A stretch of DNA of 64,000 bases from positions 32,001 to 96,000 of the IMG/VR virus record IMGVR_UViG_3300037249_000541. The stretch is one strand, 5' to 3'. The position numbers and the translations under genes are program-made. Positions 51,753 through 59,713 of this stretch are shown here, piece after piece. The notes below the pieces were generated by a model, which worked only from the letters and a program-made list of their open reading frames with translations, ran no database searches and was not told where the DNA came from. The stretch is from a virus. Taxonomy: Duplodnaviria; Caudoviricetes. The number at the start of each line of letters is the position of its first letter. The stretch's first letter is position 1.

Positions 51753-51823
51753 AGACACTTGATTTTTTGGCAAAAAGCATAATGGTACCGATAATCAGTC
51801 GGGAATCTTTTTTGTAAGTGTCT
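51753..51823 (-). ncRNA. ACAA-module RNA
   Basis: AGACACTT-ACAAAAAA-GATT...AATC-AAGTGTCT. Confidence 0.7.
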
Positions 51824-51964: not shown

Positions 51965-52086
51965 TGCAGCGAGCAGGAGTTGAACCTGCGTTTTCGGATT
52001 GGAATATTCTAACGATGTTTTTGTGAGTAAGTAATCTTACTTAAATGTTATAGTGCCGACGTTCTAACCAACTAAACTATCGCTGT
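51965..52086 (-). ncRNA. Trp-like tRNA with ACAA module inserted in the anticodon arm
   Basis: Intact acceptor, D and T arms; insert AAGTAAG-ATTA-CTTACTC-ACAAAAAC; residual TTCCAA-TCCGA. Confidence 0.7.
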
Positions 52087-52291: not shown

Positions 52292-52294
52292 ATA

Positions 52295-52428
52295 AAATGC
52301 AAATACTCCATATAGGTTAACTGTTCCATTCGACACGCCTCTTCCGAACATTCCAGGTCTGAGTCATACGGTTTAACAGCCATGAGATAGAGATAGGTGT
52401 GCGTCATCTCAGGCGTGTATTTGCATTT
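52295..52428 (-). ncRNA. Structured ncRNA candidate
   Basis: 12-bp terminal inverted repeat AAATGCAAATAC/GTATTTGCATTT; internal ACACGCCT/AGGCGTGT. Confidence 0.45.
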
Positions 52429-52440
52429 GTTTTTTTTATT

Positions 52441-52503
52441 TGATACTTATGTCAACGGGTTAGATTAAAAGTCTAATGTTTTTTATTTGTTTTGTAAGTA
52501 TCA
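52441..52503 (-). ncRNA. ACAA-module RNA carrying an isolated Lys(UUU) anticodon stem-loop
   Basis: TGATACTT-ACAAAAC..TTAGA-CTTTTAA-TCTAA..AAGTATCA. Confidence 0.75.
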
Positions 52504-52523
52504 TCGTTCCATGAATGACGCGA

Positions 52524-52886
52524 TTAAACAACCGCGTTTTCTTTCTCTTTGTCAAAACATTTGTTCTGCAATATTTGACGGAAATATTCTTCTGCATCAC
52601 CAAAAGATTCAAAATCTCTTTCGATGCAAGATTTATATTCTTTGCCTACCTTTAATAGTTTAAAGGTTTGGCTTAGTCCATAAATAACACAGTTAGTTAC
52701 CGTAAAATCAAATATTACTTTACCATTATCATCTTTTCGTGAAATAATAGAAATCTTTGCCATCATTAATGGTATGTAATGGCTATGTTCGTATTTCCTG
52801 AAATTCCACGAATTGATTCGTGTTAATGCAGAAATAAATGCTAACTTTAAAAATTGATAACTATTTGTCATTTCCCTTATAATCAT
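52524..52886 (-). CDS. Hypothetical protein
   Basis: 120 aa ORF inside the RNA array. Confidence 0.4.
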   Translation of the reverse strand: MIIREMTNSYQFLKLAFISALTRINSWNFRKYEHSHYIPLMMAKISIISRKDDNGKVIFDFTVTNCVIYGLSQTFKLLKVGKEYKSCIERDFESFGDAEEYFRQILQNKCFDKEKENAVV

Positions 52887-52890
52887 TAAA

Positions 52891-52946
52891 TGTCACTTGG
52901 GGTATTTTGATTAGCAGTCAAATCCATTTTGAATTTGTAAGTGACA
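52891..52946 (-). ncRNA. ACAA-module RNA carrying an isolated Ser(GCU) anticodon stem-loop
   Basis: TGTCACTT-ACAA..TTTGA-CTGCTAA-TCAAA..AAGTGACA. Confidence 0.75.
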
Positions 52947-52954
52947 GTGTTTTG

Positions 52955-53067
52955 CGGACAGGATAGGACTCGAACCTATGACATCGGCATTAACAGTGCA
53001 ATTCGTTAGTTTTGTAAGTAACTAATGCTACTTGTGATACGCGCTCTACCAACTGAGCTACCTGTCC
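52955..53067 (-). ncRNA. tRNA-Asn(GTT) with 40-nt ACAA-module insertion in the anticodon stem
   Basis: CG-[TATCAC-AAGTAGC-ATTA-GTTACTT-ACAAAAC-TAACGAATT]-GCA-CTGTTAA-TGCCG. Confidence 0.78.
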
Positions 53068-53673: not shown

Positions 53674-53750
53674 TGTCGCTTGTGCTTGCTATCGCGGTTT
53701 TCGGCTGCGAGGTTTGCGTAACTCAATGTGTTATTGTTTTGTAAGCGACA
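53674..53750 (-). ncRNA. ACAA-module RNA (GCTT/AAGC variant)
   Basis: TGTCGCTT-ACAAAAC...TCGC..CCGAAAA..GCGA...AAGCGACA. Confidence 0.7.
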
Positions 53751-53782: not shown

Positions 53783-53905
53783 TGGCGGAGGCTGGACTCG
53801 AACCAGCAACTTTCAAATTATCAGTTTGACTATCTTAACCTTAAAAGTATTGTTTTTGTAAGTAACATATGTTACTCAACTTTGTTTTTGTTGATATACT
53901 CCGCC
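53783..53905 (-). ncRNA. tRNA-Ile(GAT) with ACAA module inserted in the D-loop
   Basis: GGCGGAG/CTCCGCC acceptor; TATC..[GAGTAAC-ATAT-GTTACTT-ACAAAAAC]..GGTTAA-GATA; TCAAA-CTGATAA-TTTGA. Confidence 0.78.
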
Positions 53906-54609: not shown

Positions 54610-54725
54610 TCGAGGAGGTCAGACTCGAACTGACGACCCTTGGAACCCCACGAATGTGATGTTCTTGTGAGTAACTCAAGTTACTTAATTCTAAACCAAT
54701 GCTCTACCAGCTGAGCTACTCCTCG
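54610..54725 (-). ncRNA. Pro-like tRNA with ACAA module inserted in the anticodon loop
   Basis: CGAGGAG/CTCCTCG acceptor; TTGG..[AAGTAAC-TTGA-GTTACTC-ACAA]..TGGGG..CCAA. Confidence 0.72.
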
Positions 54726-54731
54726 ATAAAA

Positions 54732-54894
54732 AACAAGATTTTCTTTACTGCCTAATTCGTCTGGCACTTTCATTACGTCCGCATTATTTGTGCCAGTAAT
54801 TGCCTCATGCAGTCGTTTTGTTGCGCGCATTTGACTGCCCTATTGGTTCTGCAAGGTTCATCTTTCTACTGCTATGAACGAGGAAAATCTTGTT
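54732..54894 (-). ncRNA. Multi-hairpin structured ncRNA candidate
   Basis: Terminal AACAAGATTTTC/GAAAATCTTGTT plus GTTCAT/ATGAAC, GCAGTC/GACTGC, CTGGCAC/GTGCCAG hairpins. Confidence 0.5.
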
Positions 54895-54897
54895 AAG

Positions 54898-55087
54898 TGC
54901 GCTCGTCAGGACTTAAACCTGAATCTACAAATTTACTATAATTATACCATAATATATCTTGACTAATCCCGTGAGCCATTGTTGATGCGCACACGACCGA
55001 GTTCCACGGCTATTTACATTCTTAGGCAATATATTATGATATTAAATTATAATTAATCAATTGCTTTAATTATTAAGCTACAAGCGC
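54898..55087 (-). ncRNA. tRNA-like RNA with greatly extended anticodon arm
   Basis: GCGCTTG/CGAGCGC acceptor, GCTT/AAGC D-stem, TCAGG/CCTGA T-arm; long insert stem ATATCATAATATAT/ATATATTATGGTAT. Confidence 0.6.
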
Positions 55088-55092
55088 GTGTT

Positions 55093-55221: not shown

Positions 55222-57081
55222 TTAGATTACGTTGTTCCTGACAACATCGTAACGGTCGCTACGGAAGAACGACAGAAGAGCCGCATAAGAGTCGAACTGT
55301 TCCATATCCCTGAAATTGGTGAGGAACATCTCTATCTGTGAAGGGTTTGCTGGAATGTACATCAGATTTGGCACGGTTGTAATCTGTGCATCTACCGATA
55401 CCTGATTATTGATGTCCATAGCAATGATGAATGGTTTGAAGCCAAGAACTTCCTCTGCTTTTGAAAGCAAGTTCACAACTGAATCCAATCTATTCCTTGA
55501 AGAATTCCATTCGCCGTCAGAGATTATTGTCCAGATTGGATATCTCGCAAATTCATCTTTTACAGCATCTCCTTTGTCAAGAAGGTCTGAGATATGTTCA
55601 ACGATTGCTTCGATATTAGTCCAACCCCAGTCAGCTTTCGCTCTCAAGCAGCAATACAGGTTTTTGTAGTTTTCCAAAAACGATTTTGTTGTGTCAACAA
55701 GCGGAAGGTCAACTTTCTTGATGTTTGGCATCATCAATTGATTTCTAACTTTCTTCATGCCATCAACTTGCCTGTCTATTGTTGTTACAGGAATGACGTT
55801 GTTTCCGAACATGTACACTACGTTCCTTGCCAATGGGTCAGGGTTCTTGTAGAGGCATACAGAAGCAATGAAAGATGCGAAGTTGAATGCCATGCAACCA
55901 TAATTGCTCATTGAGCCTGAACAATCTATGAATACCAAAGAGTTGTAGGGCAGATTCACTTTCTCCTGTACGAATGCTTCAATTTTGAGTTCGTCCACAT
56001 TAGCCGAACAAATCTGTTCGTACAACTCCTTGAAGTTTGTTGCGCCAGTTGTTACCTTAGCTGCTTTCTTCGCTTCCCTTAAAGCTGCTTGCAACTCAGG
56101 TGTTATAGGCTCACCATTCTGTACCTGCTCTTTGATGTCGCGTACTTTCTGTTGTGCTTCCTCTTTAAACTTCTCCCATTCCTCGAACCAAGTTTTCAGA
56201 TTAGGCCATTTGAGGTCATCACTATCCTTCTTCTTGGAATAGAAGATTTTGTTCTTTACGCGGAATCTTGCTGATGCAGGCAAGTTGTTGAGCCATTCCT
56301 TGAATTGCATCTGGTCAAACTCTGCAATCTTTCCTGTAGAGAAGAGTACGCTTTCGAGTTCGCCGTTGTACTCACTGCGCCATTTACGATAACCTACGAA
56401 GTTGACTTTTTCTTCGTTGTTTCCAACATAGCGATACTCCCAACCCATTCTCTGTGAAAGCATCTTGAGAAATTCTCCTTTTGCTTTCATATTGGCTTTT
56501 GTCTCTGGCAACATACGAGTGTGTCCTTGACGAACACCAAACCTTGGAGGTGTCAAGAATTTCGCAACGCAAGTCTTGGCGAATGGATTGTTGCCACGAA
56601 CAATTTTCTCCACGAATTCGCAGAGAGATTCTCTGTACCAACCCTCGTTGAACAAACACCTATTGCTTACGATTGTCGGGTTTTTTGCTTTGACTTTTGC
56701 CGTCTGTACGCGAGACACAAACAACGAGTCCATGCACTGATACTCGCTGATTATGCCTTTGCCGAGGAATACTTTGAACTGTTCTCTTGCGTTTTTCATC
56801 ATCCAGTCAAGTACAACGTTGAATCCTTTGCGGTTGCTGTTGCCACCATTGTCACGCTGTTTACGACCGAATATGTGATGCTGACGGCCTGTGATGTCGC
56901 CAATACCAATTAGAATTGAATAGAATAACTGCAATTTCTCCTTGCTTGTTGCTTCAGAGTATGCAGCTTCTATCATGTCAACGGTGATTGTATTGCCCAT
57001 ATTTTGGAATAACATCATCATGCCGTCGCATCCCTGAAAGGGATTTTCCGATGTTTTGTTGAATGTTACTATTGATGCCAT
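55222..57081 (-). CDS. TROVE/Ro60-like helical repeat + vWA domain protein (DUF2828-like)
   Basis: MIDAS DCSGSM, WG.TN, ISDGEWN; N-terminal LF....GDI.GR...GG...R..F, AKF..P, KV..GA motifs; start placed at MASIVTF (57081). Confidence 0.7.
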   Translation of the reverse strand: MASIVTFNKTSENPFQGCDGMMMLFQNMGNTITVDMIEAAYSEATSKEKLQLFYSILIGIGDITGRQHHIFGRKQRDNGGNSNRKGFNVVLDWMMKNAREQFKVFLGKGIISEYQCMDSLFVSRVQTAKVKAKNPTIVSNRCLFNEGWYRESLCEFVEKIVRGNNPFAKTCVAKFLTPPRFGVRQGHTRMLPETKANMKAKGEFLKMLSQRMGWEYRYVGNNEEKVNFVGYRKWRSEYNGELESVLFSTGKIAEFDQMQFKEWLNNLPASARFRVKNKIFYSKKKDSDDLKWPNLKTWFEEWEKFKEEAQQKVRDIKEQVQNGEPITPELQAALREAKKAAKVTTGATNFKELYEQICSANVDELKIEAFVQEKVNLPYNSLVFIDCSGSMSNYGCMAFNFASFIASVCLYKNPDPLARNVVYMFGNNVIPVTTIDRQVDGMKKVRNQLMMPNIKKVDLPLVDTTKSFLENYKNLYCCLRAKADWGWTNIEAIVEHISDLLDKGDAVKDEFARYPIWTIISDGEWNSSRNRLDSVVNLLSKAEEVLGFKPFIIAMDINNQVSVDAQITTVPNLMYIPANPSQIEMFLTNFRDMEQFDSYAALLSFFRSDRYDVVRNNVI

Positions 57082-57684: not shown

Positions 57685-58467
57685 TTACTTAGCCGCTTTC
57701 AGTTTCCTAAAATCGACTGTTTTGATTTTTGTTATCACTCTGTTGCCCATTCTGTCGTAGATTGGTACTTCTGGGCGCAATACCAATCCTTCTGCATCAA
57801 GGTTCTTATCTTCGGCTATTGCTGACTTGAAGCCAATAGATACAACATCTATTGCTTCTTCTATTGTCATTTTGCCATAGAATGGAACTGTTGGTGCATT
57901 GAGTTTCTCGGCAATATCTTTCGTCGAATCCCACTCCAAGTACAAGTTATTGACCTTAGTGTCGAATACAATGAATGATACGCCGTTACGAATGTAACCA
58001 CCTCCGCTTTGTATTCCTGCTCCATATCCTTCTCCATAGATTGTCCATTTTGTAGGAATATCATCGATTGTTTCCCACTTATGGTCTTTCCATTCCTCGT
58101 AAGGAATATAAGACTTCAACCCCCAAGCTGCTAATACTTTTTCAGTGGGATAGTTGTCTTCAAGGTGCTTCCTCAATGTTGGTGGAATCTGTGCGTTATC
58201 TGTTTTACCCTTGTAGTCAACTTTGAAATTAACTCCAAGAATCTGACGTATACCTTCTTTGTCTGCTTCTGAATAGACAATCTCGATGGTTACTTCTAAT
58301 CGAATATTTGTGCCATCTATCTTCTCAAAGGCAAGCCAGATGCAATTTTTAAGGTACTCGACAATTTTATCGGAGTAGTCTCCAACAATTATCAAGTCCT
58401 TTGAATCACGCTTAAAGATTGTGTTAATCTTTTGATACGTGTTCTCTGAACGTTTTTGTTTGCTCAT
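57685..58467 (-). CDS. RNA ligase (Rnl2-like nucleotidyltransferase)
   Basis: Motif I EKIDGTN, III YGEGYG, IIIa FIVFD, IV EGLVLR, V KIK. Confidence 0.88.
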   Translation of the reverse strand: MSKQKRSENTYQKINTIFKRDSKDLIIVGDYSDKIVEYLKNCIWLAFEKIDGTNIRLEVTIEIVYSEADKEGIRQILGVNFKVDYKGKTDNAQIPPTLRKHLEDNYPTEKVLAAWGLKSYIPYEEWKDHKWETIDDIPTKWTIYGEGYGAGIQSGGGYIRNGVSFIVFDTKVNNLYLEWDSTKDIAEKLNAPTVPFYGKMTIEEAIDVVSIGFKSAIAEDKNLDAEGLVLRPEVPIYDRMGNRVITKIKTVDFRKLKAAK

Positions 58468-59275: not shown

Positions 59276-59713
59276 CTATTGCTTATACCTTAATCTCAAC
59301 GACAATAATGAAAATAACGTTTTCTTTTTTATTATCTTATATTCATTGCCATTAAGCGTTATTGTTCCTTTTGCCACATCAATGATTCCGTTGTTTTGTT
59401 CAATAAAATCAATACCTAAGATTCCATTTAATCCAAAACTTTCATCAACTTCATCAATATCATTTGTTACGGCTGTTTTTAATTTAAATTCGCAATCACT
59501 TACTTTAATTGGTAATTCATAAAAACCAGCCATTTGAACTCCATTAAGATTGCTTATTTGCATATTTTTCAAATGCTTAAACTGTATCTTTTTCTGCATC
59601 AAAGACCTCATCATTTTGTAGTCTTTGTCATATATAATACTACTATCAGCACCTGTATCTATGCACATTGTTAGCTTAGTGGAATCTACTTCAATTTCTA
59701 TCGTAATATTCAT
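59276..59713 (-). CDS. Retropepsin-like aspartic protease
   Basis: IDTGADSS and GILGIDF motifs. Confidence 0.8.
   Translation of the reverse strand: MNITIEIEVDSTKLTMCIDTGADSSIIYDKDYKMMRSLMQKKIQFKHLKNMQISNLNGVQMAGFYELPIKVSDCEFKLKTAVTNDIDEVDESFGLNGILGIDFIEQNNGIIDVAKGTITLNGNEYKIIKKKTLFSLLSLRLRYKQ

Follow-up and report, generated by a model that had tools for sequence, protein, structure and literature searches.

Two lone anticodon stem-loops of a crAss-like phage as probable smallest members of a tRNA-derived, Y-RNA-like small-RNA family

Two isolated anticodon-type stem-loops, one of Lys(UUU) and one of Ser(GCU) type, are encoded about 400 nt apart in a 64,000-nt stretch (the window) of the IMG/VR virus record IMGVR_UViG_3300037249_000541. 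Both are probably cargo, carried by the two smallest members of a tRNA-derived, Y-RNA-like family of small RNAs in a crAss-like phage. The first-pass annotation had claimed that the two hairpins are presented on a shared module, and this was borne out: each is enclosed by the same 8-bp closing helix, in which WGWYRCUU is paired with AAGYRWCW, followed by single-stranded ACAA (Table 1).

The phage and the locus

The phage record is complete (106 kb, with terminal repeats), and the window is part of it. The large terminase is 62% identical to that of the uncultured phage cr116_1 and 54% identical to that of Bacteroides phage crAss001, and the phage is therefore classed as crAss-like. All tRNAs and nearly all genes of the window lie on the minus strand.

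Table 1. Features of the locus, with positions in the window
Feature	Position	Strand	Evidence or remark
Minimal module, 4-bp hairpin CCGA-CUGAUUA-UCGG (GAU-like, U at position 37)	51753..51823	-	Conserved in L076 and L078
Genuine phage tRNA-Lys(UUU)	52218..52291	-	ARAGORN and Rfam, 77 bits
Lys-type minimal module, 63 nt	52441..52503	-	Sequence, fold and conservation
Lys-type module, helix 5' strand TGATACTT	52496-52503	-	Pairs with AAGTATCA at 52441-52448
Lys-type module, single-stranded ACAA	52492-52495	-	
Lys-type module, hairpin UUAGA-CUUUUAA-UCUAA	52460-52476	-	
Ser/Asn-type minimal module, 56 nt	52891..52946	-	Sequence
Ser/Asn-type module, helix 5' strand TGTCACTT	52939-52946	-	Pairs with AAGTGACA at 52891-52898
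Ser/Asn-type module, ACAA	52935-52938	-	
Ser/Asn-type module, hairpin UUUGA-CUGCUAA-UCAAA	52906-52922	-	
tRNA-Asn(GUU) with 40-nt insert (53000-53039)	52955..53067	-	Rfam 48 bits, 53-nt insertion
Module with non-tRNA-like cargo (loop CCGAAAA)	53674..53750	-	
Gene of probable Ro60-like protein, about 619 aa from ATG at 57081	55222..57081	-	Fold search
RNA ligase gene (nucleotidyltransferase domain)	57685..58467	-	PF09414 E 7.6e-16, phrog_548 8e-19

The tRNA-Asn(GUU) gene ends 8 nt before the Ser/Asn-type module. Its insert consists of the module helix in the form of a hairpin, followed by ACAAAAC, and removal of the insert in silico left a canonical tRNA-Asn(GUU) as called by ARAGORN. Counting this gene, three to four tRNA genes of the window contain the helix in closed-hairpin form. 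The other interrupted tRNA genes lie at 51965-52086, 54610-54725 and about 53791-53900; their inserts (40-60 nt) are built in the same way, with ACAAAAC after the closed hairpin, and the insertion sites are in the anticodon stem, the anticodon arm or the D-loop. Upstream of the Ser/Asn-type module, the anticodon loop of the interrupted tRNA reads CTGTTAA (Asn) in the window (52990-53000) and CTTCTAA (UCU, Arg-type) in the related loci L082 and L083 (about 1150-1170). The anticodon was thus switched in a body that is otherwise conserved.

Two further segments of the locus were recorded. A 150-nt insertion (52293-52440) between the Lys-type module and tRNA-Lys carries 11-bp terminal inverted repeats (AATGCAAATAC and GTATTTGCATT); it was found in the window and in L076 and is absent from seven relatives. 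This segment may represent a mobile insert or else a small structured RNA. About 330 nt (54760-55090) separate the first module that follows the Ro60-like gene from the next tRNA, and no credible ORF or Rfam match was detected in them.

Sequence and predicted fold of the two minimal modules

The stems are perfect over 5 bp, the 7-nt loops read CUUUUAA and CUGCUAA, and there is no other tRNA arm; in these points the first-pass annotation proved exact, on the minus strand. Neither ARAGORN nor Rfam, even at E<=1, gave a tRNA match at 52441-52503 or 52891-52946, therefore no other arm is present. A tRNA (RF00005) is a cloverleaf with acceptor, D, anticodon and T arms. Each of the two elements has one arm and lacks the acceptor, D and T arms, and the annotation was also right in stating that they cannot act as tRNAs.

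The predicted fold of the Lys-type module consists of the closing helix and the hairpin (z -2.7). For the Ser-type module the unconstrained minimum-energy fold (-10.5 kcal/mol, versus -7.6 kcal/mol with ACAA held unpaired) contains the competing hairpin CAAAUUCA-AAA-UGGAUUUG, and the anticodon-like hairpin is not formed. In this competing fold ACAAAUUCA is paired with UGGAUUUG, a pairing kept in all three sequence variants through G-U or G-C.

First-order random sequence of the window's composition would contain 6.6 perfect 5-bp stems with a 7-nt Y-U-NNN-R-N loop per 64-kb strand, and 0.47 with the tRNA-typical CU-NNN-AA loop. The minus strand has three CU-NNN-AA hairpins outside tRNA genes. 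Two of them are the elements described here, and these two fall within about 100 nt of module cargo.

A GAA-like loop had also been reported in the module at 53674..53750. This claim did not hold: loop position 2 is C, the stem has a mismatch, the loop reads CCAAAAT or CCAAAAA in the relatives, and the minimum-energy fold lacks it, so that the module was rejected as a carrier of an anticodon-like arm. Several other identities were dismissed for the two elements on visual inspection: a permuted or split tRNA (the cargo does not contain the halves), an HDV-like or other small ribozyme (no conserved core, variable cargo, no Rfam match), a sigma-70 or Bacteroidetes-type promoter (TAnnTTTG is missing at -7), an integron attC-like site (the core does not fit) and an overlapping ORF (there is just a 50-aa TTG frame).

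The helix and ACAA across the array and its relatives

The sequence nnnRCTTACAA, whose 5' part can pair with a downstream AAGYnnn, recurs about 15 times on the minus strand between 50.4 and 57.1 kb of the window. The strict form of the motif has nine matches in the 106-kb genome, on one strand and all inside 2.4 kb, and the helix is confined to about 5 kb downstream of the genes for the Ro60-like protein and the RNA ligase. When modules were defined as a helix of at least 7 bp followed by ACAA with a span of at most 140 nt, the window region and 42 related loci contained 157 on the gene strand versus 1 on the opposite strand. Pattern scans of JGI metagenomes or IMG/VR yielded no further copies of either minimal module, and the IMG/VR relatives of the RNA ligase (30 loci) had neither tRNAs nor a cluster of the motif.

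The helix covaries. Pairs 4-8, counted from the ACAA junction, are exchanged between A-T and G-C, T-A and C-G, T-A and A-T, G-C and A-T, and others. One case is the orthologous module at 53674..53750: two genomes have the helix TGTCGCTT/AAGCGACA, and L077 and L078 have TGTCACTT/AAGTGACA, a compensatory double change from G-C to A-T. In the window and in most relatives a copy of the helix also brackets the start codon of the Ro60-like gene.

Conservation in close relatives

Close relatives were found through the Ro60-like protein and the 116-aa ORF between the two elements. They comprise eight loci (L076-L083, two of them identical) with 75-93% DNA identity to the window region. The alignment thus contains nine loci from eight distinct genomes, and the close clade is limited to these eight.

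In the eight distinct genomes none of the 21 columns of the Lys-type arm with its closing bases (CATTAGACTTTTAATCTAACC) varies, while the linkers vary at 9 of 13 columns on the 5' side and 8 of 13 on the 3' side (17/26 in total). Because the arm is invariant between variable linkers, it is, as judged from this alignment, under strong purifying selection. The genuine tRNA-Lys varies at 12 of 74 columns, with compensatory changes in the anticodon stem among them. The distance from the end of the Lys-type module to the phage tRNA-Lys(UUU) downstream is 5-11 nt in seven of the nine aligned loci.

The stem of the Ser-type hairpin is likewise invariant in the relatives, but the loop is not: three genomes have CTGCTAA, four loci (three distinct sequences) have the Asn-type CTGTTAA, and in one genome the loop has shrunk to the 5-nt CTGAA. 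Of the two anticodon loops named in the first-pass annotation, that of Lys type is the same in all eight genomes, and that of Ser type is not conserved (GCU, GUU or a 5-nt loop). With a better alternative fold and a drifting loop, the anticodon likeness of the Ser-type module may be a decaying remnant.

The origin of the Lys-type arm was sought among tRNA-Lys genes. In a tRNA-Lys-like context the exact arm was found at only 17 places, in assemblies of Ignavibacteria, Kapabacteria, the Chlorobi group, Defluviitaleaceae and Hyphomicrobiales. As these are all non-gut lineages, the arm is not a copy of the tRNA of a likely Bacteroidales host, and the idea that it was copied from host tRNA-Lys is unsupported.

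Cargo and anticodons across the family

The 141 distinct cargos range from whole tRNA-like bodies down to single arms; a T-arm is present in 62 and absent from 79. For the minimal modules, leader copies and doubtful matches were removed, which left 33 clusters. A tally of loops in homologous elements, suggested by the first-pass annotation, gave the enrichment that it had anticipated: a Y-U-NNN-R-N hairpin was present in 5 of the 33 clusters, versus 0.97 in shuffles (P 0.002), and a CU-NNN-AA hairpin in 3 versus 0.06. The three CU-NNN-AA clusters are the two elements of the window and a module of L073 (ATTAA-CTTTTAA-TTAAT). At least 28 of the 33 clusters (about 85-90%) carry other hairpins.

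Among the distinct tRNA-like bodies called by ARAGORN, 57 are capped by a module and 198 are free. The capped bodies include Ile (10), Lys(UUU) (7), Pro (7), Thr (5) and Phe, Asn, Ser(GCU) and Gln (3 each), and the most frequent free tRNAs are Arg (36), Glu (20) and Met (19). No other single anticodon is as frequent on capped bodies as Lys(UUU) (7/57, versus 9/198 among free tRNAs); counted by locus, capped Lys(UUU) occurs in 6 of 43 and capped Thr(UGU) in 7. In the capped Lys(UUU)-like bodies the D, anticodon and T arms are canonical, and the acceptor stems are imperfect, consist of A-U pairs only and run into the module helix. Seen against these tallies, the minimal arms look like the reduced end of a tRNA-derived cargo series. 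A separate peculiarity was seen in six related loci (e.g. L038-L075), in which ARAGORN called capped bodies with 8-nt anticodon loops and the four-base anticodon 'tttg'; no free tRNA has such a loop.

Neighbouring genes

The AlphaFold model of the 619-aa protein (pLDDT 72) has a helical N-terminal half and a vWA/MIDAS domain, and the MIDAS-type DxSxS (D406, S408, S410) is invariant among its homologs. No Pfam model, TROVE included, and no PHROG matched the protein. In a Foldseek search the best 12 chains were all Ro60 (Xenopus, human, Deinococcus and Thermus phage phiLo) with E values of 3e-6 to 3e-4. These alignments are whole-length, but for this medium-confidence model the TM scores are low (0.25-0.35). 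Among the matches listed, alignment across both halves (341-352 residues, rmsd 6-7) was confined to Ro60 chains. VIA-align also placed Ro60 chains first (Z 12.5), with the vWA domain alone close behind (Z 10-11.7). From the modelled structure the protein is probably Ro60-like.

Homologs of this protein number 1,149 in metagenome-derived proteins, and none was found in 50,697 deposited phage records. A direct protein scan gave no close relative with the Ro60-like protein and one with the large terminase; the Ro60-like relatives were retrieved by an alignment-based scan. The closest large-terminase relative (L036, 1001-4368; 84% identity) has its 756 aa distributed over 3,368 nt, a spread that points to an intron or intein in the gene.

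The RNA ligase gene is located two genes upstream of the Ro60-like gene. In L076-L078 the ligase, the small ORF, the Ro60-like gene and the RNA array follow one another in the same order. Upstream of the ligase, an ORF for a retropepsin-like aspartyl protease (59276-59713, minus strand; PF13975 E 7e-6, just under the gathering score) is kept in L076 and L077. Another small ORF (52524-52886, minus strand, 115-120 aa) lies exactly between the two minimal modules; it has no family match and is conserved across six protein clusters (84-91% identity), and the modules on its flanks are retained in every case with a long enough fetched flank.

Interpretation and alternatives

In the small-RNA family proposed here the helix would be a protein handle, most likely for the Ro60-like protein, by analogy with the terminal stem of Y RNAs that serves Ro60. 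The Ro60-like protein is named because the same tag sits on the start codon of its own gene, a position that usually points to autoregulation by an RNA-binding protein. The tightly packed array would be transcribed as one precursor, from which tRNA-processing enzymes might release the modules as 56-63-nt RNAs. The anticodon arm would be retained tRNA mimicry, by which a Lys(UUU)-type loop is presented to a protein able to read such arms, with nucleases, modification enzymes and synthetases as candidates.

That the minimal RNAs are decoys or baits for host anticodon nucleases cutting tRNA-Lys(UUU) and other tRNAs, perhaps while attached to the Ro60-like protein, with the phage tRNA-Lys and the ligase replacing or repairing the damage, we consider unlikely. 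Such a role would agree with the invariant Lys(UUU) loop adjoining the phage tRNA-Lys(UUU), with the minimal module of the same anticodon in a second phage lineage (L073), with the leading place of Lys(UUU) on capped bodies and with the ligase gene in the operon; moreover, PrrC reads the tRNA-Lys anticodon stem-loop (PMC1484252), and phage tRNAs have been proposed to act against tRNA-cutting defences (PMC10264068). However, most minimal modules have no anticodon-like arm, the capped anticodons are scattered over few loci each, and the Ser-type anticodon drifts between GCU and GUU with a 5-nt loop in one genome, and is therefore a poor fit to a specific nuclease target. The exact Lys-type arm is found in tRNA-Lys genes at so few places, all non-gut, and a stoichiometric decoy would have to compete with abundant tRNA. 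The probability is similarly low for cis-acting leader or trailer spacers that guide or time the processing of adjacent tRNAs, the anticodon likeness being left from partial tRNA duplications. The tight spacing at both modules speaks for such spacers, as do the GUU of the second module in four relatives (three distinct sequences), which is the anticodon of the adjacent tRNA-Asn of the window, and the occurrence of the same helix inside tRNA genes, where its removal restores the tRNA. But in the window and in L076 the 150-nt insertion parts the Lys-type module from tRNA-Lys and the arm is still invariant; in L082 and L083 the upstream tRNA reads CTTCTAA when the module reads GUU. The stems of the arms are unrelated to those of the adjacent tRNAs, thus the arms are not recent duplicates, and a spacer would not account for a loop conserved to the base.

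It is very improbable that the modules are miniature inverted-repeat mobile DNA elements without RNA function, which have the 8-bp arms as terminal repeats and picked up tRNA fragments. Perfect 8-bp inverted ends of conserved sequence, many copies with varied inner content and hairpin-form copies inserted into tRNA genes are what such elements would give, but the extreme strand bias, ACAA on one side only, the compensatory change at an orthologous site, the conserved copy that brackets a start codon and the invariant inner arm all argue against them; target-site duplications were not noticed, and no transposase is nearby.

The small-RNA family remains the probable explanation of the two stem-loops. 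An extension of it, which we hold to be quite unlikely, is that the Ro60-like ring protein and its interchangeable RNAs made of tRNA parts, down to a bare Lys(UUU) arm, form a programmable trap for host tRNA-cutting nucleases, with the ligase and the phage tRNA-Lys as back-up repair and replacement. If the arm does meet an anticodon-reading host protein, abundant gut phages would have a new RNA-based route against tRNA-targeting immunity. Ro60 and Y RNAs are conserved from bacteria to humans and their function is poorly understood. With an invariant Lys-type arm beside the matching tRNA and about 15 RNAs tagged with the putative handle, the locus offers a natural cargo series for testing the variable domain of Y-like RNAs.

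Comparison with known systems

PrrC reads cues in the tRNA-Lys anticodon stem-loop (PMC1484252), and the 5-bp stem with the CUUUUAA loop is the arm type that it recognises. PrrC recognition also uses base modifications, and no nuclease is linked to this locus. A natural phage-encoded stem-loop decoy was not found in the literature searched. Phage tRNAs have been proposed to counter tRNA-cutting defences or to replace depleted host tRNAs (PMC10264068, PMC11555353). The two elements resemble phage tRNA arrays in their location, a tRNA cluster that includes tRNA-Lys(UUU), but such arrays consist of complete chargeable tRNAs, and here the acceptor, D and T arms are lacking.

The closest parallel is with Y RNAs and YrlA. 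In bacteria and in 22 phages, the genes of Y RNAs with tRNA-like domains lie close to Ro60 and share its strand (PMC4201824), and Ro60 of Thermus phage phiLo binds the phage Y-like RNAs Yrl1 and Yrl2 (PMC12135203); a literature search found no paper that connects crAss-like phages to Ro60 or Y RNAs. As in those systems, small RNAs are located within a few kb of a Ro60-type gene: the two modules lie on the same strand 2.3-2.8 kb downstream of 55222-57081, within the distance of about 4 kb seen for Y RNAs, the likeness of the gene to Ro60 coming from the fold search only. The terminal stem made of the 5' and 3' ends has its counterpart in the 8-bp covarying closing helix, and tRNA-derived domains are present in the array, although the two minimal elements have no T and D arms. 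An RNA ligase in the neighbourhood is a further similarity. The Salmonella operon rsr-yrlBA-rtcBA has one too, RtcB belonging to an unrelated ligase family.

There are also differences. Known Ro60-binding motifs are GNCGAA or GGUCCGA in a bulged helix (PMC4201824), and the motif here is RCUY-ACAA (WGWYRCUU, then ACAA). Rfam Y RNA models gave no match at E<=1, and the 619-aa protein matches no Pfam TROVE model. Judged by sequence, the modules are not members of the Y RNA family. There are about 15 copies instead of one to four, and the helix is found also inside tRNA genes and in the leader of the protein's own gene. Finally, YrlA has its Ro60-binding stem in place of the anticodon arm and retains the T and D arms, whereas the minimal modules described here retain the anticodon arm alone.
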